From a virus: a DNA stretch of 34,442 bases. The translations under genes and the position numbers were made by a program. The notes under the pieces were generated by a model, which saw only the letters and a list, made by a program, of their open reading frames with translations, was not told where the DNA came from and made no database searches. How positions within the stretch are numbered: position 1 is the first letter of the stretch; every line of letters begins with the position of its first letter. Location of the stretch: the UHGV virus genome UHGV-0123328; one strand, given 5' to 3'. Shown one piece after another: positions 3,230 to 30,500 of the stretch.

Positions 3230-3990
3230 AGCCAATAAGAAAACAACTAAATAACAGATCAACGAAACATCAACGCTTTCACCCGATTTGGTCTAAAAAA
3301 TTGACGTTTTCACACATCACTGCTTATACCCGTAATTCTACACAGCAGACAGCGCCACAGCGTCCAATTTTCACCACAGACGACCCAACACACTACCAAC
3401 AAAAACACACGCTCAAAATCGCTCCCGTTGCGTTACACAACCATATAAACAACTTATTTTCAGGTATAACAAAACAACTAAATAACACATATGCCATTCC
3501 CCATAACAACCAACCTCTTTATGGCAGGCTACCGAAAAGACCCACCTCTTCTTCTCAGGCTATCGGACAACCAACCTAACTTTCACAGGCAATCCGAAAA
3601 CATTCATACGCGCAATACCCACGACACGCCATTACCCAAACAGCGAAGAAACACCAGAATCACTGAAACCCCAACGAAGCCTGTAACCGCAAGGTTTCTC
3701 TCAATCCCAAAAGACACGAAACATAACAATCACGGGAAACGCCATTACCCAATACACGAATAACTACAAAAGCCCTTCACGCACTCCAGACAAACAACTC
3801 AAACACAATAACGAAAGCAATCGCCCACCTGCCATTACTCCATACACGGAGAAGAACAATCACCAAAACGACGAGAACACCCCATAGAAGAACCACCGCA
3901 AAACGAACGAAACCACATACACCGACAGAGAGAACAACACGCCCAATTCACCAACAGAAATAGTCGCCGTATAGAACGTTCTGGAAGGGG
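3230..3990 (+). other. A+C-rich, G-depleted non-coding tract with three copies of a GCCATTAC(C/T)C-N-ATACACG motif
   Basis: Extreme strand compositional skew visible by eye. Motif copies at about 3626-3641, 3738-3758 and 3829-3849. Only low-complexity ORFs on the plus strand and none of 60 aa or more on the minus strand. Confidence 0.6.
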
Positions 3991-4309: not shown

Positions 4310-4622
4310 TACCGGTATAGCGAGAGGGAGAGTTGCGGCTACCCACCTGTAATGTGCGGGAAGAAGAGAGGCGCTCACGTGCAGGCGAACTTACTTACCG
4401 CTGGATTCCCTCTGAATGCCCAGCTACAGCGTAATTGTGCCAGACAGCCAACGGGTCACAATCGATTTCAGTAGGTTTTCGGGGAGATGATTATTCTGCC
4501 CACCAGCCACCTTCGGCCACTAAATCAGAATAATGTAAAAAGTGTACTCGGTACTGAACCTGAAAACTCACTGCCAAAACCACATTCACCGGAATAAAAT
4601 CCTTTTTCGCCTGTGCGTTATT

Positions 4623-4660
4623 GCGATAATAACACCAACGAGAAAACAAGTTGTTTAAGG
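4623..4660 (+). promoter_or_regulatory. Conserved promoter/operator-like module, copy 1 (GCGATAAT…AGAAAACAAGTTGTTTAAGG; palindrome 4644-4656)
   Basis: Nearly identical to the copies at 6760-6796 and 7245-7284. Palindrome AAACA-agt-TGTTT ends 12 nt before ATG 4669. Confidence 0.6.
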
Positions 4661-4668
4661 ATTGCTTT

Positions 4669-4998
4669 ATGTTTGCAAATATCGACATCAACCAAATCAA
4701 GAAATTAACTCAAAAAGAGTTTGATCAGTTTTATGAGTTAGAAGGTTGGTCTTCCACTCTGATCAATTCGCGGTGGGTGCTTGAGCTGATGACTCGTGAT
4801 GACGCACCTGCTTTGATGATTTGCGACATGGGTGAAGATGCTGACTTTATGGATATGAGCGAATTTTGTGTGGACACATACAACCGCAGCCAGAAGTACT
4901 ACTTCACATGCGATAGCGAAAATGACGTGATTTCTAAGGTCTATCTTCACCTCGTCCAGCATTGGGACGTTCAGGAGTTTCTTGAAGTATTCGAGTAA
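4669..4998 (+). CDS. Hypothetical small protein (109 aa; ORF track starts at TTG 4651)
   Basis: ORF with AAGGA Shine-Dalgarno 8 nt upstream of ATG 4669; conserved upstream module; stem-loop 5008-5026 downstream. Confidence 0.6.
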   Translation: MFANIDINQIKKLTQKEFDQFYELEGWSSTLINSRWVLELMTRDDAPALMICDMGEDADFMDMSEFCVDTYNRSQKYYFTCDSENDVISKVYLHLVQHWDVQEFLEVFE

Positions 4999-7125: not shown

Positions 7126-7244
7126 ATGACCATCCTGTTTCCCGCAGGCTAAAAACACCAACCTCTTACCTCCAGGCAACCGACAAACCCACCTGTTCCC
7201 GTCCGGCTACCGCAACTTTCCACTTTGACGCCTTATTCGTACAA

Positions 7245-7910: not shown

Positions 7911-8335
7911 GGTCGCCTTTATGTAGAAAACTGAGCGGGAGAAACCCGGAATCGCGCCAGAAATTGCGTAGCGGCGCTGGGGTATCGCTGGTGGGGGTTT
8001 CAGCCCCTGGGCCATCCAGATAGCTTTCGCTATGTGATTATGTGAATCCGTGGGTAAATCACTGTAAGCGCGTACACGTTGCCCAACGTGGCAATCATAT
8101 GCGAGCGGACACAGAACAACACAAAATGCCGATCCGCGCCGACAATTAAACGCGGATCACATAGCAAGAATAAAAGCCAATGATTAACCATACACCATAA
8201 CGCAATATAACGCGATTTAAGCGCGTTAATGCGCTAAGTAATGGGTATGTACTGGTAAGGATATAAAAGCGCGTCTATGGCGTTATTTTGGCGCTTATTT
8301 TTATGTTGTTGGAGTGAGTTAAAGACAATAAAAAA

Positions 8336-12340: not shown

Positions 12341-13900
12341 CTAATCTCGTTTCAGAACTCCAAAATCGAATGCGCCATCAATAGGCAATACACCTTCTGC
12401 AAAGCCAGGTGTGGTGTCGATGATGTGTTTTCGCTCATAAGAGTGAGACAACAGGTATTTGTTGCTAATGTCAATGAAATCAGTGATAAAACACACGTTT
12501 GCCTGATTCTTCTTGGCTCGTAAGCCACGACCGACACGCTGTCTCATTTCAACTTCTGCTTTCCCACCACCAGCAAGAATGACCGCACCAACGCTTGGCA
12601 CATCAACACCAACATCCAGAATAGTCGAGCCTATTAAAACATCTATTTCACCAGACGCTAAACTGTTCAGCTTTGCTTGCCTTGTCGACTGGTTCGATTC
12701 CCCATAAATGAAGTCAACTCTAAGGCCGGACTCTTTCATCATTTCCATCAGGATTTGCCCGTGGCGTTTAAGACGAACCAGAGTCATACAATTGAGAGAA
12801 TGTTGCTTATAGAGCAATGCTTCGCGAACAATGGCCTCATTACGTCCCAAATTATACACGATCCCCAACTGATAAGCCTTTTGGTAGGCTGTGCTCATAC
12901 CTACTCTAAAATTGAGGTGTTTGTTGGCAAGTTCCGCCTTTATTCTGACCTCGTCTGGCTTGTAGGCAACTTTATGATAAAGGAAGTACGGTTTTGCCAG
13001 AATGCCTCGATCAATCAGGTACTTTTCTGTGACTTTGATTTCAATTCGCCCAGCCACAGCCATCAGACGCATGTTGGCTTCTGTAGAATCCTTCATGAAC
13101 GGCGTGGCCGTAAGTGCCAGACGATAGTCTGCGTTCACACATAATCTGGCAATGTCATAGAAATTAGAACCTGAAGACTCATGCGCCTCTTCCAGAATAA
13201 GCAGAGACACACTTGAAAGGAAGCGTTTCACCAAGTCCCGACGTTTGAGGTGGTAGCTCTTCTTATCTGGAGTTGCATCGCGTGGTGGTTCTTCAAGGAA
13301 ACTTGCCAGAGTTTGAACTGTAGCGACGTTGATATGTCGTGATACCTGGAACTCACCAGAGCCAATGACTCCAACCTTTTGGTCTTTTAACCACGGTTCG
13401 CCATTTTCGGCGCGGTAGTCGATGGATCTCTGGAAGTTTTCGGCCATTTGAAACATCAGAACAGAGCGGGTTGTTAAAAATAATGTCATTCGACCGATAC
13501 GTGCAGCTGCTTTGCAGGCAACATTAGATTTCCCGCCACCAGTAGCGATCTGCGCAATCATCATTCCCTCTCGAACCAGTGTTTCCACAGTCTGATCCTG
13601 ATACGCATAATCAGGATTGTATGGGAATGGGTTAACCGCCGGATTTGGTTTACCAAGCGCCGGGGCTTTGTCTTTGCGGATATGAACACATTTGATGCCC
13701 GCCTTGTTCAAGTTCGCCGCTACAGGCTTGGCAAAGCCAGCAGGGAACGAGTTTTTACTCCAGTTGAACATCGTGCTTGTGCCCTTCCAGTCGCCAGTCT
13801 CGACTTCGTAGCTCAACATCTGTTGCACCATTTGCTTTACCTTGTCATCTGCGCCAGAAATAAGCGCATTAACTGCGTTAGATACAATCCGAACAGTCAT
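12341..13900 (-). CDS. Superfamily 2 DEAD/DEAH-box helicase (519 aa), probable phage replication/recombination helicase
   Basis: Motif I ATGGGKS, motif II LILEEAHE, motif III LTATP and motif VI QRVGRGLR. AAGGAAAGAGG Shine-Dalgarno before the ATG at 13900. Confidence 0.8.
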   Translation of the reverse strand: MTVRIVSNAVNALISGADDKVKQMVQQMLSYEVETGDWKGTSTMFNWSKNSFPAGFAKPVAANLNKAGIKCVHIRKDKAPALGKPNPAVNPFPYNPDYAYQDQTVETLVREGMMIAQIATGGGKSNVACKAAARIGRMTLFLTTRSVLMFQMAENFQRSIDYRAENGEPWLKDQKVGVIGSGEFQVSRHINVATVQTLASFLEEPPRDATPDKKSYHLKRRDLVKRFLSSVSLLILEEAHESSGSNFYDIARLCVNADYRLALTATPFMKDSTEANMRLMAVAGRIEIKVTEKYLIDRGILAKPYFLYHKVAYKPDEVRIKAELANKHLNFRVGMSTAYQKAYQLGIVYNLGRNEAIVREALLYKQHSLNCMTLVRLKRHGQILMEMMKESGLRVDFIYGESNQSTRQAKLNSLASGEIDVLIGSTILDVGVDVPSVGAVILAGGGKAEVEMRQRVGRGLRAKKNQANVCFITDFIDISNKYLLSHSYERKHIIDTTPGFAEGVLPIDGAFDFGVLKRD

Positions 13901-13982
13901 AAACCTCTTTCCTTAGTGCCTTTTGTATGTTATTTGGCTATTATAATAAGTAAGTGATTACTTAGTGGATTGTAGCAATAAA

Positions 13983-14663
13983 ATGGATGTAAAAATCACG
14001 ATTTTGCAGGTTGATGTTGCCAACCTTCGCCCGAATACCTGGAACACCAATTCGGTTGGTGCGCAGAATTTTGAAAAACTGAAAGGTTCTATCGAAAAAT
14101 TGGGCTTTTTTAAGCCAATTTTGGCTCGTGAACTTGAAGATGGATTTTTTGAAATCCTCGGCGGCGAACATCGCTGGCGTGCTGCTATTGAGCAAGGAAT
14201 TTCAACGGTTCCGGTGCTTTCTGTGGGCAAAATTAGCGATGTCGTAGCTAAACAGATGTCACTGGTGGACAACGAGCGATACGGTGAAGACGACCAAATC
14301 GCATTGCAACGCTTCATTGAAGAAATTCAGTCAGAACTTGACTATCAACTGTCTGAAATCGCCCCGTATGACGACGAAATCTCGATGGTTTTAGCAAAAG
14401 AGGCGGCAATCGACCTTGAAGCACTGGAGGCGTTGTCTCGTGGTAGTGATGAGCCTGTCGATACCGACAAACGAGAGAAAACCGAACGTGTCGGTGCGGA
14501 ACATCAGACCATGCGCTTCAAAGTAACTTTCGATGCGTCAGATCGCGTTGCAGAAACCATAAAAAACATCATCAAAGACCAGGCAATTAATACTGGCAAT
14601 GAAATGGAAAACGCTGGTGAGGCTCTGGTGTGGCTGGTCGACTACTACAAGGAGCGTATGTAA
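13983..14663 (+). CDS. ParB/Srx N-terminal-domain protein 1 (227 aa from ATG 13983; ORF track starts at GTG 13965)
   Basis: ParB-like N-terminal signature region (…FEILGGEHRWRAAIEQGISTVPV…); acidic C-terminal half. Confidence 0.65.
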   Translation: MDVKITILQVDVANLRPNTWNTNSVGAQNFEKLKGSIEKLGFFKPILARELEDGFFEILGGEHRWRAAIEQGISTVPVLSVGKISDVVAKQMSLVDNERYGEDDQIALQRFIEEIQSELDYQLSEIAPYDDEISMVLAKEAAIDLEALEALSRGSDEPVDTDKREKTERVGAEHQTMRFKVTFDASDRVAETIKNIIKDQAINTGNEMENAGEALVWLVDYYKERM

Positions 14664-15331
14664 TGACCAAAAAGTTTGAAATCGTATATCGCGACCCGGC
14701 AGATCTTATTCCCTATGAGATGAATGCCAAAAAGCATGATGAACAGCAGATCCGAGATCTGGCCGCAGCCATTAAAAAGCGCGGATTTGACCAGCCAATT
14801 ACGGTCGATAAGAACGACGTAATTATTACTGGCCACGGCCGCCGTGAGGCTGCAATTTTTGCTGGACTTGAGCGCGTACCGGTTATTGTTCGCGATGATC
14901 TCAGTGATGACGAGGTTCGTGCGAAGCGCCTTGAAGATAACCGACTTGCCAGCATTGATTACGATGCAATTAAGCTACAGAAAGAGCTTGAGTCGCTTGT
15001 TCTGGACGATATCGAGGTTTTCGGCTTCGAAGAGCGTGAGTTGAATGTTCTCGTTGGCAGTATGACAGAAGAAATGGACACCGACTCGCTAGTTATCGAT
15101 CTTGGCGAAGAAACTAAACGACAGAAGGATGAACACACCGAGATCAGTCGTGAAGTTGCAGCGGAAGAAGTACGTGTTGTCGACGTATTGGGCTTTAAAA
15201 CGCTCCCTGCTGGCTCTGCCATTGTTGTTGGTGATTTGCTTGCCCATATGGAAGAAATGACGGGAGAAAGCGGGGTAGACGCATTTGTGGCATATGCGGA
15301 GAAGATCTCTTCCGGGGAGATGGCTGCATGA
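14663..15331 (+). CDS. ParB/Srx N-terminal-domain protein 2 (222 aa; ORF track start 14630)
   Basis: …ITGHGRREAAIFAGLERVPVIV… ParB-like motif. ATG overlaps the upstream stop (TAATG), with AAGGAG Shine-Dalgarno. Confidence 0.65.
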   Translation: MTKKFEIVYRDPADLIPYEMNAKKHDEQQIRDLAAAIKKRGFDQPITVDKNDVIITGHGRREAAIFAGLERVPVIVRDDLSDDEVRAKRLEDNRLASIDYDAIKLQKELESLVLDDIEVFGFEERELNVLVGSMTEEMDTDSLVIDLGEETKRQKDEHTEISREVAAEEVRVVDVLGFKTLPAGSAIVVGDLLAHMEEMTGESGVDAFVAYAEKISSGEMAA

Positions 15332-15993
15332 GCAAATACATCATCAACGTATCGTTTCAGACACGCGTAAATAAAACCACGCGCACGTTGGAAATCGCTG
15401 AGTCGTTCGGGCTTGGCCTGGACGAAAAAGAGTGGACGCTTTACGACAATCTGGAGCTGGAAGTGAAGCAGGGCGATGTGGTGTACATCACCGGCCAATC
15501 CGGTTCCGGCAAATCCGTTGTGCTGCGCGAGTTGCAACGACAGATGAAGGATGAAGGGCTGTCTGTAGCCTCCATCGATGATTTTACCTTCGATAATGAG
15601 GTTAACGTCATCGATCAGTTGGGCAAAACGACCAGTGATGCGCTTGGGTTGTTATCTATGGCTGGTCTGAACGATGCATATCTGTTTGTTCGCAAGCCTT
15701 CTGAAATGTCAGACGGCCAGAAATATCGTCTCAAGATTGCCAAACTGATTGAGTCAGGCGCTAAAGTATGGGCTGCTGACGAGTTCGGCGCTGTTCTCGA
15801 CCGTGTAACCGCTCAGGTTGTGGCGTCTAACCTCCAGCGTGCCGCTCGAAAGGTTGGTGCGACGGTAATGGTGGCGACGACTCACGAAGACCTGAAGAAC
15901 GCGCTGCGCCCTGATATGCAGATCACCAAGCACTACAAAGAACGCGTGAAGGTGGAATATCACAATGGTAGTCATGATGAGGTCCATTCATGA
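15328..15993 (+). CDS. Minimal ABC-type ATPase (221 aa, nucleotide-binding domain only)
   Basis: Walker A GQSGSGKS, ABC signature-like MSDGQKYRL, Walker B VWAADEF and H-loop ATTHE in canonical order. Start overlaps the upstream stop (ATGA). Confidence 0.7.
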   Translation: MSKYIINVSFQTRVNKTTRTLEIAESFGLGLDEKEWTLYDNLELEVKQGDVVYITGQSGSGKSVVLRELQRQMKDEGLSVASIDDFTFDNEVNVIDQLGKTTSDALGLLSMAGLNDAYLFVRKPSEMSDGQKYRLKIAKLIESGAKVWAADEFGAVLDRVTAQVVASNLQRAARKVGATVMVATTHEDLKNALRPDMQITKHYKERVKVEYHNGSHDEVHS

Positions 15994-16607
15994 CGGACAT
16001 CATCATTAAACGCTACCGCCCTGAAGAGTTTCCGCGTCATCTGGACTTTCTGGAGCGAATGACTGTTACAAAGGGAACTGTAGAGGACTGGCACGCTCTT
16101 AAGTCGCTTCACTACAAAACAGACGGCAAACCTTTCGCGCCAACTTACTATCGCTGCGAACTTGATGACCGTCTGGTGGGCGTCGTGGTTATGGCTTACC
16201 CGAAACTACTGTTGGCACCTCGCCACCGCATGTTTCCTAAGTTGAAACCAACCACTAATACCACCGTGGCTAACCAGTACTGGGGTCGGTACGTGAATAA
16301 CAACTTTGCGGTGATCAGTCGCTCAGTTGTGGATACTCAGTATCGTGGCGTAGGCGTCTCTTATAGAATGATTAACCTGGTTAGCAGGATGCATGACCGG
16401 CCAATCATTGAGATCCAGTCCTCGATGAGCAAATACAATCCCTTCGCCATGAAAGCAGGGTTTAAGTTCATCCGCCCTGAGCGACCGAAGAGCTATGAAA
16501 GTGCACTGCGTGTATTCCAGCGCCATTTCCGTTCCGACCCGGGTGATAACGAGGCGATCGTCAAAGAGTTGTTCGCAATGAGCGAGTCTCGTCGTCGCCG
16601 TGCGTGA
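15990..16607 (+). CDS. GNAT-fold (acetyltransferase-like) protein (205 aa)
   Basis: Motif-A-like VVDTQYRGVGVSYRMINLV and motif-B-like NPFAMKAGFKFI. Start overlaps the upstream stop (ATGA). Confidence 0.5.
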   Translation: MTDIIIKRYRPEEFPRHLDFLERMTVTKGTVEDWHALKSLHYKTDGKPFAPTYYRCELDDRLVGVVVMAYPKLLLAPRHRMFPKLKPTTNTTVANQYWGRYVNNNFAVISRSVVDTQYRGVGVSYRMINLVSRMHDRPIIEIQSSMSKYNPFAMKAGFKFIRPERPKSYESALRVFQRHFRSDPGDNEAIVKELFAMSESRRRRA

Positions 16608-16875
16608 TCTGGTGGCGGACTACCACAAGAACAGTTCCCTGGCAAAAGCTGGGCGGAATCGTGGCACGACGATTCAGGACATTGCCGACAGTCTGGTGGA
16701 CGAGGCCAGCATTGTGAAGCTGCTCAAGGACATTCACAACCTGAGCTTTACGTCTCCGTTGTATGGTGTGTATCGAAACCCTGACTTTGGTCGTCGACTG
16801 CCTGACACGCTGCCACTGCTGGCATTCGACAAACAACCTTTGGATAAACCGTTGGAAATTGCTTTACCGGCATAA
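16600..16875 (+). CDS. Hypothetical small protein (91 aa, GTG start overlapping the upstream gene by 8 nt)
   Basis: ORF continuing the operon; no recognisable motif. Confidence 0.45.
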   Translation: MRDLVADYHKNSSLAKAGRNRGTTIQDIADSLVDEASIVKLLKDIHNLSFTSPLYGVYRNPDFGRRLPDTLPLLAFDKQPLDKPLEIALPA

Positions 16876-16884
16876 GGATTTGCC

Positions 16885-17151
16885 ATGACGTTAACCGATA
16901 AACAAAAGGACATCATCAAAACGCTCAATCTCGGTTATGAGCGAGGTCATCTACTTGATCTGGACGAATTGCTTGAAGTTTTGCCGTACAAGACAACAAA
17001 GCAAAGTATCCAGTTCTCAATTCGCGCTCTGATAAAAAAGGGGCTGGTGGAGAAAGGGCATACGCGCCAACGCAGTGACAATCGCTATCACCGCCGGACT
17101 CTTGGGTTAACCACTTTAGGTCGAGCCAAAGCGAAGTTACTGGTGATGTAA
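16885..17151 (+). CDS. Small basic protein with a possible helix-turn-helix (88 aa); candidate regulator
   Basis: ORF 10 nt after the previous gene; the segment TTKQSIQFSIRALIKKGLV resembles an HTH recognition helix. Sits immediately upstream of the large palindrome and packaging genes. Confidence 0.45.
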   Translation: MTLTDKQKDIIKTLNLGYERGHLLDLDELLEVLPYKTTKQSIQFSIRALIKKGLVEKGHTRQRSDNRYHRRTLGLTTLGRAKAKLLVM

Positions 17152-17175
17152 TCGGTCTGGGAGCTTATTTAAAGA

Positions 17176-17230
17176 CCTGCTTCTGTATATATAAATAATA
17201 AGTAACTTATTAAATATATACGGAAGCAGG
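17176..17230. promoter_or_regulatory. Large imperfect palindrome (about 27-bp arms, CCTGCTTC…GGAAGCAGG) centred on AATAAGTAACTTATT
   Basis: Arms CCTGCTTCTGTATATATAAATAATAAGT and ACTTATTAAATATATACGGAAGCAGG. Located between the regulator-like gene and the small terminase gene. Confidence 0.6.
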
Positions 17231-17347
17231 CTTAGTAAGACATGCCCAGACCTAATTAAACACCCCAGAAAACAAGTTGGTTAGCAGATGCAGTAAACAA
17301 GTTGTTTTAGAGCGCATGGACGCGCTCTGTGTGTTTTAGAGGGATCT

Positions 17348-17980
17348 ATGACGGTCGAAAAAGACGAGGTAAAAACTCGCCTGACACCAGCGGAGTGGGC
17401 CGAAGCTGAAGCCAAATGGACGTCAGGCGAATATACACTCTCAAAGCTGGAGGAAGAGTACGGCATTCGTCGTGAAACACTCTCCAGACATTTCAAAAAG
17501 CGAGGATTAGAGAAAGGCGCGGACTCTGTTGGGAAGATGGTTCGTGAGTCTCTTAAATCTGACGCAGAGCTTCGCGCTAAAGCCCGTGCGGAAAAGATAG
17601 AAGAACGTCGTACACGTTATGACGGCTGGGCGTATGCGTTGGGGCAGATGGTGATGGTCGAAGTCACTACGGCCAAACGTGAGGGTAAGCCTTTAGGGGC
17701 GATTGAGGATTCTCTCAAGAGCTTACAGAGAGCCAGTAATACCCTTGCAAAATGCTTTGAAGTTTCGTCCAAAGCATTGGGCATGGATCATGCGGAAAAT
17801 GACGAGGAAGAAATTCCGAACCTGGTATTTGGTGAGCTTACGCCTTCCCAGGTGGCGAAATTACGTCAGGAAGACGACGAGCCTGAAATCATCGATGACG
17901 AATTGCTTGAGACGTTGGAAGAAGAAGCTCTAAGCGAATTTGATGCGACAGATGATGGAAGTGAAGGGGAGGACGAATAA
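17348..17980 (+). CDS. Terminase small subunit (210 aa), putative
   Basis: Immediately upstream of and overlapping the large terminase (TAATG). N-terminal helix-turn-helix-like segment (YTLSKLEEEYGIRRETLSRHFKKRG) and strongly acidic C-terminus. Confidence 0.6.
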   Translation: MTVEKDEVKTRLTPAEWAEAEAKWTSGEYTLSKLEEEYGIRRETLSRHFKKRGLEKGADSVGKMVRESLKSDAELRAKARAEKIEERRTRYDGWAYALGQMVMVEVTTAKREGKPLGAIEDSLKSLQRASNTLAKCFEVSSKALGMDHAENDEEEIPNLVFGELTPSQVAKLRQEDDEPEIIDDELLETLEEEALSEFDATDDGSEGEDE

Positions 17981-19236
17981 TGGCAATCCCGTCCTCGCTC
18001 AGTCTTGTGCAACTGCATTCTGGACAGATGAAAGTCTTCCAGTCTCCGCATCGATTTAAAGTTGTTTGTGCTGGTCGACGCTGGGGAAAATCCCGGTTGT
18101 CGATCTCCACTATTATTCGTGCGGCGGCAAAGGAAAAAAAGCAAAGAGTCTGGTATGTCGCTCCTACTTACCAGATGGCTCGCCAGATTTTGTGGGACGA
18201 TCTACAGGAAGTTCTGCCTCGTAAGTGGGTTAGGAAAAAGAACGACACCACGATGACAATCGTGTTGAAGAACGGTTCGGAGATCGCCCTCAAAGGTGCT
18301 GATAAGCCTGACACTCTGCGCGGCGTAGCGTTGCATTTTGTAGTGCTTGATGAATTTCAGGATATGAAGGCTGACACCTGGTACAAGGTGTTACGACCTA
18401 CTCTTTCATCGACACGCGGCGGTGCACTGATCATTGGTACGCCAAAAGGCTTCTCGGAATTTCACAAACTGTGGACTATAGGCCAGAACGTAGAGCTGCA
18501 AAGAAAGGGACAGTGGAAGAGCTGGCAGTTTGTAACTGCCGATTCTCCGTTTGTACCTACGGCGGAAATTGAAGCTGCTAAGAACGATATGGACCCGAAA
18601 TCGTTCGCTCAGGAGTACCTGGCGAGCTTTGAGAACATGTCAGGGCGCGTTTACTACCCGTTCGATCGTAACGTGCATGTAAAACCGCTTCAGTTCAACC
18701 CTCGGTTGCCTATATGGGTAGGGCAGGACTTCAACATTGACCCGATGTCTTCAGTAATTTTGCAACCTCAGCCAAATGGTGAGCTATGGGCAATTGATGA
18801 ATTGGTGCTCTTTTCCTCTAACACGGCAGAGGTTTGTGATGAGCTTGAGAGACGCTTCTGGCGCTGGAAATCACAGATAACGGTATTTCCAGATCCGGCA
18901 GGTGCTTATCGCCAACATGCTCGCGGGGAGTCTGACGTCGACATATTCAAAGAGAAGGGATTCTTACGTGTCGATTATTCGAAAAAGCACCCGCCAATTG
19001 CGGATCGTGTTAATGCTGTTAACCGAATGCTGATGACCGCATCTGGAGATATCCGGCTGTATATCGATCCGAAGTGCAAGCATTTGATTGATTCACTGGA
19101 AAAAGTCATCTACAAGCCTGGAACACGAGATATGGATAAGACAGGTGGCATTGAGCATAGTGCAGACGCATTGGGCTATCCAGTACATCGTAGGTATCCA
19201 GTCAAAAACCGTGTTATTCTTGGTGGTTCTCGATAG
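17980..19236 (+). CDS. Terminase large subunit (418 aa)
   Basis: Walker A VCAGRRWGKS and Walker B HFVVLDEF in the N-terminal ATPase; Asp-rich RNase H-like C-terminal nuclease region; position before the portal gene. Confidence 0.85.
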   Translation: MAIPSSLSLVQLHSGQMKVFQSPHRFKVVCAGRRWGKSRLSISTIIRAAAKEKKQRVWYVAPTYQMARQILWDDLQEVLPRKWVRKKNDTTMTIVLKNGSEIALKGADKPDTLRGVALHFVVLDEFQDMKADTWYKVLRPTLSSTRGGALIIGTPKGFSEFHKLWTIGQNVELQRKGQWKSWQFVTADSPFVPTAEIEAAKNDMDPKSFAQEYLASFENMSGRVYYPFDRNVHVKPLQFNPRLPIWVGQDFNIDPMSSVILQPQPNGELWAIDELVLFSSNTAEVCDELERRFWRWKSQITVFPDPAGAYRQHARGESDVDIFKEKGFLRVDYSKKHPPIADRVNAVNRMLMTASGDIRLYIDPKCKHLIDSLEKVIYKPGTRDMDKTGGIEHSADALGYPVHRRYPVKNRVILGGSR

Positions 19237-27516: not shown

Positions 27517-30500
27517 ATGTCACAAAACGTAGAGTTTATCCTGTCGCTGGAAGACAAACAGTTTACAGCGTCAATCGATCGTGCGGGGAAACTGCTTACT
27601 CGATTTGGTGAGCAGGTAACAAAGCCTGCTCAAAAAATCCAAACCTTTGAACGCTCTTTGGGTTCGGTCGCCCGTATCATTGGCGTTCTGGAAAGCAAGC
27701 TCGATTCTACGGCAGATAAACTACAGGATGTAGCTGCCGGTTTTGAGCTTGCTTCAGATGCTACGCGTAAAATGCGTGGCAACATCACCAGCCTCAATTC
27801 TGGTCTTAAAGCCCTGATTGAGCGCGTCGATACGACAACTTCTTCAGTAGATAAACTCACCGCGTCATTACGTAAAGTGCAATCAGAGCTAAATGATTTC
27901 TCTGATTGGGCGACCTATGCAAGCAAAAGCGCAAGCCGCTTTGGTACGGAGGTCAAAGAAGCCTCTGCGTCCGTGAGTGGCATGAATACGCGCCTTAATA
28001 CCACGACGAAGCGACTCAGTAATTGGGGTGTCACAACGAGTCAGGCTGCCGAGGGACTGAAAAAGGTTCGTGAGCAGATGGACGAAGTTATCGGACGTCA
28101 GCAACTGATTAGCAAGCCGGTACGCGTTCGTACATCTGGAAGTGGCGATGGTGGTAGCGGGCGGCGTAGCGGCGCTTCTGGCCATAGCGGTAAAAGTAAC
28201 GAAGGAGGTATGTTCTCTGGCCTTCGTGGCAACATTTTCCTGCTTGGCGAGATCGGAGATGCAGCCAGAACGGTTACTGACATCATGTTTGGGTGGCAGA
28301 AGCCTATTGTTGAAGCTGCGGCCGAAATGGAACGTATGCGGGTGATGCTTCGAGGGTTGAATAAGGAGAAGTCCAACCCGGGCCAGGCTGCCGCTGATGA
28401 TATGAAGTACATCGTAGACATGGCGCAAAATGCGCCGTTCGCGATGCAGGCGTTAACAGATTCCTTCGTGAAGTTTCGTTCTGCTGGCTTAGATCCAACC
28501 GATGGTTCTCTGAAGGCGCTGGTGGACTCCGTTGCTCGTTTTGGTGGTGATAGTGAGCTGTTGAAACGTGCGGCTGTGGCCGTTCAGCAGATGTCCGGTA
28601 AGGGCGTTGTGTCAATGGAAGAGCTACGTCAGCAATTAGGTGAAGCCGTTCCTAACGCGATGCAGGCAATGGCAGACGCCGCAGGCATCACTATGGGGGA
28701 ACTGACTAAAGCCGTTGCCAGCGGTACGGTTGAGGCAAAACAGGCGTTGTCTCTGATGTTTGTTGGTCTGCGTGCGGAGAATGAGAACGCAGCGAAAGAC
28801 ATGATGCAAACCTACACAGGTGCGCTGGCGCAACTTCAGACGTCATTCACGTTATTTGCTGATCGGGTTGGTCAGGCCGGATATCTGGATTCTCTATCGA
28901 AGGGGATGAAAGAACTGGCTTCAATCATGAATAGCGCCGAAGGGATTTCGTTTGCCAATTCTTTAGGTTCGGGGTTAACAACGGCAATCGATGGGTTGCG
29001 TCAGCTTGCTCAATGGTTAGCAAAGAACCAAGAGCTGGTGATTAATCTCGGTAAGGTCGTGGCCGCGATGGTTGCGTTCAAACTGATGCGAGCAGGGATC
29101 ATGGGGGTAGTTGGCGCAGGCAGCCAGATGGTTAGCACCTTTGCCACGATGGCGACCGCCATACAGACTCCATTTAACCTCGGCGCTACAGCAGTAACCC
29201 GATTCAATCGTGCGGCACGTATGGGGCTGGCTCCGATCCCCTCTCTTATTTTCGCCATCCGTGGGGCGATTACGGGGCTTAAAGGCGCTTTTGCTGGCCT
29301 GACTGCGTTTATTGCGGCGAATCCGATAGGTTTTGTTTTCACTGCTGCAATGACCGCTGTTGCTGGCTTAATCACGTATATGACCATGCTTCGTAGCGAA
29401 ACTTCAAAGGTCGTTGACGAGATTAGGAAAATACCAGAAGCGATGACGGCGGCTAAACGTGCACAGATGGCCGAGTATAAAGCGCGTCTTGAGCAACAAA
29501 TCACGCAAAAGGAACAAGAGTTAAAATCTGGCGAAAAGGTGGTTTATGGGCCGGGTATGGCCGGAACTACAGTAAAGATTAATCATGATGAACGTAAGCG
29601 AATAGAAAATGAGCTAAATGAACTTCGTAAGAAACGCGATGAAACCAATGAAACTATTGCCAGAGGGGATTTGGCTGTAGCCAAACGTCTGGCAAAAGAG
29701 ACGGCAGAATCCCAGATAGAGAAAATACTCGAAGAGAATAGAGACTTTGCGGCAACGTTCGTGAAAGCTCGTCAGGAGGCTCTGGAGAAAATCCAGAAAA
29801 TCAAGGATGACGGTTCACTTTCGGATGACGAAAAGAACAAGCTATTGGCACCGTTACGTGAAACGGTAAACAAAAGCTATCTGGAGCCTGCGCAAAAACT
29901 GGTTGATTCACTTTCTTCTCGTAAGAATGCGACCGAGAAGCAAATCGCGACTCTTAATGATCAGCTTGAAAAAGCGAAAAAGGAAGGAAATACCGAGCAG
30001 ATTCAGAAACTGCAAGGAAGTATTCGTGGCTATCAGGAGCATTTGGAAGTCGTTGCTCAGGAACTGACTCAGGCAGAGTTTAAGAGGGATAACGCGGCCA
30101 AAAGTGGTAATGGCTTAGTGTCAATCAATGGAGATGTTCTTGGGTTAGGTACAACTGATAAAGCTGCTCAGAAGGCGCTGGCGCAATATATGCGAAACCA
30201 GATGGATTCTGCGACTTATCAACGTACTTTGCCTGACGGCACTCCGATGATGGACTTCGAAGGTAAGCCGATTATTGGGCCTAAACAACTCAAGACGCAG
30301 CTTAATTTGCAGAAAGCATCCAGCGCCAGCTCTCTGGAGAAAATGAGCGATGAAGAGCGTGCCGCAGCCATTGCTGCACTGACTAAAGCTCGTGAACAGG
30401 ATGCAGCAGCTGCCGAGAAAGCAGCCCAACGATCAGCTAACGCCTCGCAGCGTGCGGCCAAGAAGGAACAGGCAGCGCAACAGAAACTGGCAGCCGGATA

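Follow-up and report, generated by a model that had tools for sequence, protein, structure and literature searches.

The window analysed here is the whole 34,442-nucleotide (nt) stretch of the virus genome UHGV-0123328, an SSU5-like phage-plasmid with 99% identity to Escherichia phage Cyrano and 85% identity to Salmonella phage SSU5. It carries on its plus strand a block of genes for two ParB-like proteins, an ABC-type ATPase, a GNAT-fold protein and a small winged-helix protein, preceded in divergent orientation by a minus-strand gene for a UvsW-like helicase (12341–13900) and followed, after a gap of 196 nt, by the terminase genes TerS (17348–17980) and TerL (17980–19236) and by a portal gene. 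An initial annotation, made from the sequence, had placed the block just upstream of the packaging genes, and this is borne out by these neighbours. It had also counted six genes, two of them for small proteins. The open reading frame (ORF) map does contain six consecutive plus-strand ORFs (13965/13983–14663, 14663–15331, 15328–15993, 15990–16607, 16600–16875 and 16885–17151), yet the block consists of five genes, as the fourth and fifth ORFs are one gene of 296 amino acids (aa) split by a rare 5-nt deletion, and one of the two supposed small proteins is in fact the GNAT protein's C-terminal third, separated from the rest by the resulting frameshift. The features of the block are the following.

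13983–14663, plus strand: ParB1, an orphan protein of the ParB/Srx (ParB-CTPase) fold, 226 aa (Pfam ParB_N, 49.9 bits; phrog_723, 2.7e-79)
14663–15331, plus strand: ParB2, a ParB1 paralogue of 222 aa starting at ATG 14663 (Pfam ParB_N, 35.2 bits; phrog_930, 1e-112)
15328–15993, plus strand: stand-alone ABC-type ATPase, 221 aa (Pfam ABC_tran, 50.1 bits against a cut-off of 25; phrog_293)
15990–16607, plus strand: N-terminal 205 aa of the GNAT-fold protein (phrog_886 positions 4–209, 4.4e-119)
16600–16604, plus strand: site of the 5-nt deletion (TGCAT in Cyrano) between short TGC repeats, its exact placement ambiguous within these limits (alignment with Cyrano and SSU5)
16600–16875, plus strand: C-terminal 91 aa of the GNAT-fold protein, as a GTG-started ORF (phrog_886 positions 210–294, 2.5e-38)
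16885–17151, plus strand: basic winged-helix protein of 88 aa, isoelectric point (pI) 10.2, the fifth conserved gene (phrog_900, 1.9e-45)

For ParB1 the ATG at 13983 is the likely start (226 aa), with GTG 13965 as an alternative that would give 232 aa. The junctions are as initially described, except that the last spacing is one of 9 nt: ParB1 and ParB2 meet at TAATG (14661–14665) with AAGGAG ahead of it, ATGA overlaps join ParB2 to the ATPase (15328–15331) and the ATPase to the GNAT gene (15990–15993), ORFs 15990–16607 and 16600–16875 share 8 nt (16600–16607), and 9 nt separate the latter from ATG 16885. A stoichiometric complex had been read from these tight overlaps. This argument is weak, because the overlaps are not conserved: zero to three unrelated small ORFs stand between the core genes of relatives, with none in the window or in Cyrano, so that gene order is preserved where start/stop overlaps are not, and the overlaps alone do not show such a complex. 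The inserted variable ORFs include Phage_gp49_66, RyR-domain and DUF2829 proteins and lie, for example, at 7994–8248 (SSU5_128) of locus L002, at 6961–7999 of L084, and at 3505–3687, 4336–4755 and 5393–5895 of L088.

The split of the GNAT gene is peculiar to few sequences. ORF 15990–16607 encodes a complete GNAT domain and the first helices of a C-terminal region before it is ended by the frameshift, and ORF 16600–16875 is collinear with residues 206–296 of the intact protein and is not an independent gene; it holds the invariant YG.Y.NPD...P.LP..AFD.Q motifs, which are likewise found at the C-terminus of fused ABC–GNAT proteins. The family phrog_886 is a single one of 295 positions, and the intact 296-aa gene is present in both Cyrano and SSU5. 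The deletion occurs in none of the 168 complete E. coli genomes that carry the locus, of which 167 align with the window at 94.1%, the value expected from a 5-nt gap, one at 80–90% and none at 100%, and the exact truncated 205-aa product was found in only 3 ENA contigs. Since the intact gene is the norm and the deletion is absent from these 168 plasmids, the split gene is a rare frameshift allele or an assembly error; a programmed frameshift and a pair of real small genes at 16600 were both rejected on the same grounds.

Co-occurrence of the genes in related genomes, on which the initial annotation had made its reading depend, proved to be strict. In all 29 of the 29 diverse loci with enough flanking sequence the order is minus-strand helicase, ParB1, ParB2, ABC ATPase, GNAT protein, small winged-helix protein, gap, TerS and TerL, at 32–64% identity, and the GNAT protein is by the same order a part of the block. 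The viral-contig scan returned only relatives at 80% identity or above, and the distant loci came from exact-protein look-ups, a phage collection and a species-genome scan. The 29 loci comprise phages of alpha- and gammaproteobacteria (Pseudomonas phage nickie and Rhizobium phage RHEph10 among them), prophages in large contigs and replicons of about 110 kb; contigs of about 96–118 kb with the block were assigned to Yersinia, Xenorhabdus, Morganella, Phyllobacterium, Magnetospirillum, Paracoccus and others. The locus lies on plasmids of 168 of the 5,426 complete E. coli genomes, and also on elements of Yersinia pestis, Klebsiella and Salmonella. All of the genes are known to databases, each with its own PHROG family, but no functional account of the block was found in the searchable literature and its proteins are not individually characterised, in agreement with the initial view that it is not a described phage module.

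The ATPase is, as first proposed, a stand-alone ABC nucleotide-binding domain of minimal size. Its Walker A (GQSGSGKS), LSGGQ-like signature (SDGQKYR), Walker B (VWAADEF), D-loop (LDR) and H-loop (ATTH(E)) motifs are all present and invariant in the alignment with relatives and, together with the ABC_tran match above its cut-off, place it in the ABC ATPase superfamily. It is the most conserved protein of the block (52–64% identity at long range), a search for its homologues returned close relatives only, and JGI labels it “ABC-type ATPase with predicted acetyltransferase domain”. That name is explained by larger proteins elsewhere. With the profile of the GNAT family, 908 representatives were found at E ≤ 1e-3, and among the best 150 of these, 61 are at least 400 aa long with the match in their C-terminal part; ABC_tran precedes the GNAT match in 14 of the 14 long proteins that were scanned. 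The ATPase corresponds to the N-terminal half of such a COG2401-type enzyme and is 33–48% identical to the ATPase part of the fused proteins, while fused and split forms align over both halves, including an N-terminal AExFGxG and a C-terminal Y.IW.NP motif. An ABC ATPase followed by a member of this GNAT family, in one protein or in adjacent genes, defines the COG2401 type, and this is the arrangement in the block. Judged by this homology, the two proteins correspond to the halves of an ABC–GNAT protein that is widespread in fused form, and since they are fused into a single polypeptide elsewhere they would act as one physical unit, for which fusion is stronger evidence than the overlapping start and stop codons. 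The name “ABC-type ATPase fused to a predicted acetyltransferase” already stands in the Cyrano and JGI annotations, though no paper that mentions COG2401 and no functional study of the ABC–GNAT family was found in the searchable literature.

The GNAT subunit shows the fold of its superfamily and the R/Q-x-x-G-x-G/A loop that binds the acyl-CoA pyrophosphate. In the family alignment (39 sequences, 35 invariant columns) this loop reads R119-G-V-G122-V-S124, with R and G invariant. As this acyl-CoA loop (RxxGxS/A) is intact and invariant and all ABC catalytic motifs are invariant too, the ABC–GNAT enzyme is probably active. The subunit is strongly basic (pI ~10, charge +15) with many invariant Arg, Lys and His residues. 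A PDB sequence search with its profile gave no match. The DNA-modifying protein Mom of phage Mu is among its structural matches, but many ordinary acetyltransferases score as well or better, and a relationship to Mom was rejected as a structural hint that lacks profile backing (hhalign probability 0.3%, 11 aligned columns). A rare E. coli protein of 301 aa (P0027) joins a ParB N-terminal domain directly to the GNAT part (98% identity over 67% of the query); this variant is probably a deletion that removed the ATPase gene.

Several fused members carry further domains: a family-B DNA polymerase (P0325, P0296), a Gins51 C-terminal domain (P0324) or a TFIIB repeat (P0274). For two of the fused members the gene neighbourhood is a viral replication module with Prim-Pol, RecA, DnaB, RecJ-like and gyrase genes, and the contigs of the Gins51- and TFIIB-fused proteins are too short for a gene context to be read from them. 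A polymerase-fused relative of 1260 aa is encoded in a Prim-Pol/RecA module (L092/L093, 6001–9783), and an intein interrupts the ABC domain of one relative among P0325, P0296, P0324, P0274 and P0286.

Two paralogous ParB/Srx-type proteins had been recognised initially, and both indeed exceed the Pfam ParB_N cut-off of 26.3 bits. ParB1 and ParB2 are about 24% identical and have one common architecture, in which an N-terminal nucleotide-binding domain (Box II G..R invariant) is connected by an acidic linker to a helical, conserved C-terminal domain; their ParB_N scores, fold and Box II GxxR place both in the ParB/Srx superfamily. ParB1, of which orthologues occur in all diverse loci examined, has a Box II of GEHRWRA, a Box III-like DNER and a pI of 4.5. 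Box II of ParB2 reads GHGRREA, and the closest sequence relatives of this protein are ParB domains fused to phage DNA methyltransferases (1.2e-31 to the ParB-methyltransferase family phrog_498; 2.8e-17 to the N-terminal region of PADLOC MTase_II, PDLC03229). The AlphaFold model of ParB2, with a predicted local distance difference test (pLDDT) score of 82, matches PadC, pNOB8 ParB-N, KorB and sulfiredoxin over the first ~110 residues only and has no structural match beyond them. The NTP specificity of ParB folds was reported to be unpredictable from sequence or models (PMC12704722).

Databases would have these genes serve plasmid partition, with the ATPase in place of ParA, or membrane transport: “ParB-like partition protein”, “ABC transporter” and “ABC transporter ATP-binding subunit” are the names in PHROG, GenBank and RefSeq, and in a related Acinetobacter phage-plasmid group two ParB-encoding genes, present in most elements, were counted as partition genes (Pfeifer et al., PMC7969092). 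The block does not have the makings of either. No ParA gene is adjacent, the neighbours being the helicase gene and the ABC ATPase, and the only ParA of the Cyrano genome lies at 29307–29975, 76 kb from the block. The ParA-binding motif ([LFI]G[KR]G[LFI] in the definition of PMC12704722) is absent from 10 of 10 proteins (ParB1, ParB2 and eight orthologues). Neither a helix-turn-helix (HTH) nor a ParB dimerisation domain was detected in ParB1 or ParB2 by Pfam or matched in the ParB2 model, and both proteins fall below the cut-off of the canonical ParB model TIGR00180 (43 bits for ParB1 against 58.45). The initial statement that this is not a canonical ParA/ParB system is upheld by the missing ParA, motif and HTH. 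Moreover, a homologue of the Cyrano ParA is missing from the block-carrying phages of Rhizobium, Stenotrophomonas and Xanthomonas. As to transport, the gene maps of the window and of four annotated phage records, read without a transmembrane predictor, show neither a permease nor a substrate-binding protein gene within the block or next to it, and the ATPase is partnered by a soluble basic GNAT protein to which ATPases of this ABC type are fused elsewhere.

Expression in the prophage state argues in the same direction. These values come from Cyrano, the 99%-identical relative, and not from the window's own element. In RNA-seq of Cyrano lysogens of strain LF82, the five block genes gave 5.0–9.5 (CYRAN_119, 5.0; CYRAN_120, 9.5) against a prophage background of 9.8, next to 7.1 for TerS, 7.4 for the capsid gene and 49.8 for ParA, and the UvsW-like helicase gene and the small gene adjacent to it (CYRAN_117/118) were transcribed at 46 and 114 (PMC9928086, S1 Table). 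The block is thus silent where ParA is expressed. Directly 3′ of ParA, CYRAN_29 (OV696614, 29975–30334) is annotated as a RelE/ParE toxin and co-expressed with ParA in lysogens; it occupies the place in which the centromere-binding partner of a small ParA is expected. On the domain, motif and lysogen-expression evidence taken together, partition and transport are both very unlikely, a reading close to refuted, and the unusual partition accessory that had been among the initial candidate roles is disfavoured along with them.

The strict order in the 29 loci and the silence in lysogens point to a core function in the lytic cycle. Our preferred reading, which remains tentative and for which we would claim somewhat less than an even chance, is that the block encodes a ParB-assisted, ATP-dependent acyltransferase that acts during the lytic cycle on phage DNA, its presumed substrate. 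The ABC ATPase and the 296-aa GNAT protein would form a single ATP-dependent acyl-CoA transferase, and ATP-driven dimerisation of the ABC part would clamp or position the strongly basic GNAT part on a polyanionic substrate. The two acidic ParB-fold proteins would serve as NTP-gated activators or loaders that open double-stranded DNA to the enzyme, a part for which experimental precedent exists in the ParB partners of phage thymine dioxygenases; the winged-helix protein would provide sequence-specific DNA binding or regulate the neighbouring late operon, and newly replicated phage DNA would receive an acylated mark before or during packaging. The link to DNA is drawn from the fusions to a family-B DNA polymerase, a Gins51 C-terminal domain and TFIIB, from the replication-module context and from the basic GNAT subunit. 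A more specific version, in which acyl-CoA and ATP are used for an unprecedented acyl (e.g. acetyl) modification of DNA bases in the lytic cycle with the two ParB-fold proteins as obligatory activators, is in our view unlikely as it stands. Of all the roles initially suggested, it is DNA modification that is best supported, though unproven.

Several points weigh against a DNA-acylating role. The usual acceptors of GNAT enzymes are proteins and small molecules. For phages of this group no modified base is known, and no report of one was found in the literature searched. No ParB gene lies within 6–7 kb of the fused ABC–GNAT homologues in other viruses, so that ParB proteins are not generally required by such enzymes. 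The ParB-like proteins of the block, with a strongly acidic pI of 4.5, lack any recognisable DNA-binding domain, and the invariable position beside TerS would fit a packaging role too. The frameshift in the GNAT gene of the window may mean that the function is lost from this element or can be dispensed with there. Finally, in the thymine dioxygenase system discussed below, no stable complex of ParB and enzyme was trapped and mutations of the NTP site had little effect (PMC13229309).

The same machine could instead acylate a protein, for example a DNA-bound or replisome-associated one that belongs to the phage or to the host nucleoid, to which the ParB-fold and winged-helix proteins would bring the enzyme. 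The nearest characterised GNAT folds are mostly N-acetyltransferases of proteins and small molecules (NatA/Naa10, RimI, Gcn5), and a fusion to polymerase B, a Gins51 C-terminal domain or TFIIB could just as well anchor the enzyme in a protein complex. Nucleic acid rather than protein is suggested by the strong basicity of the catalytic subunit and by the recurrent association of ParB folds with DNA-modifying enzymes, and no candidate substrate protein is conserved in the block. We consider a protein substrate rather unlikely, though it is the likeliest of the alternatives.

Conservation also bears on a role in counter-defence or host takeover, for instance by acetylating and so inactivating a host defence or nucleoid protein or by nicking host DNA through the ParB/Srx domains. 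Among the ParB/Srx proteins of mobile elements are effectors that have nuclease and NTPase activity (Osa; cited in PMC10853773). Such elements commonly encode GNAT toxins, and a KacT-type toxin is encoded elsewhere on Cyrano. Genes of this kind are usually variable, whereas the block is a fixed core from Enterobacteriaceae to Rhizobiales in which the variable parts are the small ORFs inserted between its genes. PADLOC returned generic P-loop matches (mad3, mad8, PtuA) and the ParB domain of MTase_II, with no match to the GNAT protein, and a catalogued defence system was rejected, as no specific match was among them. Core-gene conservation and the generic PADLOC matches thus disfavour the defence or counter-defence role proposed at first, which we hold to be very doubtful.

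The block is flanked on each side by an intergenic region of its own.

13901–13982, no strand assigned: divergent intergenic region between the helicase gene and ParB1 (ORF map and sequence; head-to-head arrangement in 29 of 29 diverse loci)
17152–17347, no strand assigned: intergenic boundary between the block and TerS, with a palindrome, two AAACAAGTTGTTT copies and a terminator-like hairpin

The first would presumably control the block, and a sigma-70 scan of it found no promoter. Since the helicase side is transcribed in Cyrano lysogens and the block is silent, this shared region is active in one direction only in the prophage state. At the other end, the 88-aa winged-helix protein has weak matches to LexA_DNA_bind, Sta1/Lrs14 and the CARF-associated winged HTH. 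It was found by tblastn in 20 of 30 diverse loci, and the small ORFs that occupy this place in nickie, RHEph10 and metagenomic relatives can be aligned with it.

The boundary region opens the possibility of a packaging accessory, in which the packaging start site or the genome ends would be prepared for the terminase, by marking or processing, through the ParB-like and winged-helix proteins, and the ATPase would be a motor or regulator. “ParB-like nuclease” proteins beside terminase genes are common in phage annotations. In every locus the block lies directly upstream of TerS and TerL, and repeated motifs and a palindrome precede TerS. This AT-rich palindrome of 16+16 nt (17188–17220) occupies part of the gap that separates TerS from the block. 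It contains the terminus of the SSU5 record, and coordinate arithmetic puts the terminus of the Cyrano record in its right arm, ~10 nt beyond the centre. As both records end there, the palindrome may be a physical genome end (a cos-like site) or a mere break point of assembly; the Nican01 record begins at TerL and is uninformative on genome ends. Such a role would leave the conserved acyl-CoA-type GNAT protein without a task, and the fused ABC–GNAT relatives lie in replication and not in packaging modules. Further, a gap of ~130–500 nt, kept in relatives, parts the block from TerS, here with a terminator-like hairpin; the motif that precedes TerS is missing from the block, and a TerS with its own HTH is already present. 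A packaging accessory therefore appears quite unlikely.

The same boundary contains other elements of interest. The terminator-like hairpin (17308–17329; 8 pairs followed by a T-run) stands 19 nt ahead of the TerS start, flanked by a 10-nt direct repeat, TGTTTTAGAG, and may be a control point for late-gene expression. The palindromic motif AAACAAGTTGTTT occurs in two copies (17268–17282 and 17293–17307). With up to 3 mismatches allowed, the palindromic motif GAAAACAAGTTGTTT (core AAACAA-N-TTGTTT) is matched 21 times in the window, where 2.2 matches are expected; about 11 sites (1354–1419, 3447, 4642, 5126, 6029, 6779, 7264, 12311, 17268, 17293) lie mostly near ORF boundaries, with two just ahead of TerS and none ahead of ParB1. 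By its distribution it looks like the operator of a phage regulator, and the winged-helix protein encoded upstream of TerS is a candidate for its binding. No parS-like repeats were found near the ParB genes, and the repeated palindrome of the window is absent upstream of the block. Two sets of three tandem repeats of ~30 nt (ACCAACCTCTT..CAGGCTACCG..) lie at 3509–3599 and 7129–7216, the former within a 1-kb stretch of extreme skew (GC skew -0.32, AT skew +0.31); these repeats may be elements akin to iterons or the coding sequence of protein repeats.

SSU5-like phage-plasmids are common in clinical Enterobacteriaceae and the block belongs to their conserved core, where its annotation as partition or transporter genes can mislead the classification of phage-plasmids. 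If the proposed mechanism of a ParB-assisted acyltransferase is true, it would give a function to the uncharacterised ABC–GNAT (COG2401) family of viruses and archaea, bring a second enzyme class under ParB-fold control and possibly provide a new DNA modification of use for restriction resistance or DNA labelling. Should base acylation be true, a new class of DNA hypermodification machinery would emerge, with a core common to many viruses and archaea, in which it can be fused to the replicative polymerase. Natural contrasts for such studies are available in the split and fused forms, in the ParB-associated and ParB-free forms, and in the frameshifted GNAT allele of the window.

Among known systems, canonical ParABS has in common with the block the ParB N-terminal (CTPase) fold and the conserved Box II GxxR, but the block differs in having no ParA partner, ParA-binding motif, HTH, dimerisation domain or expression in the plasmid state. 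The COG2401-type proteins (“MK0520”) are homologous over both halves and share their motifs with the block, in which the protein is split into two genes (three ORFs in the window) and joined to two ParB-fold genes and a winged-helix gene. TmcA/NAT10 is an ATPase-coupled GNAT enzyme that makes N4-acetylcytidine in RNA. By analogy only, the block would follow the logic of this enzyme, in which a P-loop NTPase is coupled to a GNAT and NTP hydrolysis drives the acetylation of a nucleic-acid base. Mom of phage Mu is a GNAT-fold enzyme that modifies DNA adenine by carbamoylmethylation; it has neither an ATPase nor ParB partners and no sequence relationship to the block.

Closer parallels are offered by enzymes that work with a ParB fold. 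ParB-methyltransferase fusions were reported to be enriched in phages and prophages, and a ParB-acetyltransferase fusion to bind GTP (PMC12704722). The N-terminal ParB domain of the methyltransferase fusions (phrog_498; PDLC03229) is nearest to ParB2; in contrast to them, the block has no methyltransferase domain, its ParB folds are separate proteins and the neighbouring enzyme is of acyltransferase fold. DpdB is described as a ParB-like ATPase that assists DpdA (PMC12839542). The nearest case is that of a subclass of phage thymine dioxygenases (5mYOX), which need a ParB homologue on double-stranded DNA in vivo and in vitro, this ParB being required for modification of double-stranded DNA after replication; these partner ParBs consist of a nucleotide-binding domain and a C-terminal domain and have no DNA-binding domain (PMC13229309). 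Both there and in the block a phage orphan ParB with a poorly structured linker and no DNA-binding domain is encoded beside an enzyme, and the ParB2 model has the same architecture as the dioxygenase helpers. The block differs in its enzyme, which is an ABC-ATPase-coupled GNAT protein and not an Fe/2-oxoglutarate dioxygenase, and in having two ParB paralogues instead of one as well as a winged-helix protein. If its enzyme does modify DNA, the block would join the emerging class of DNA-modifying systems assisted by ParB proteins and bring a new enzyme core to it.

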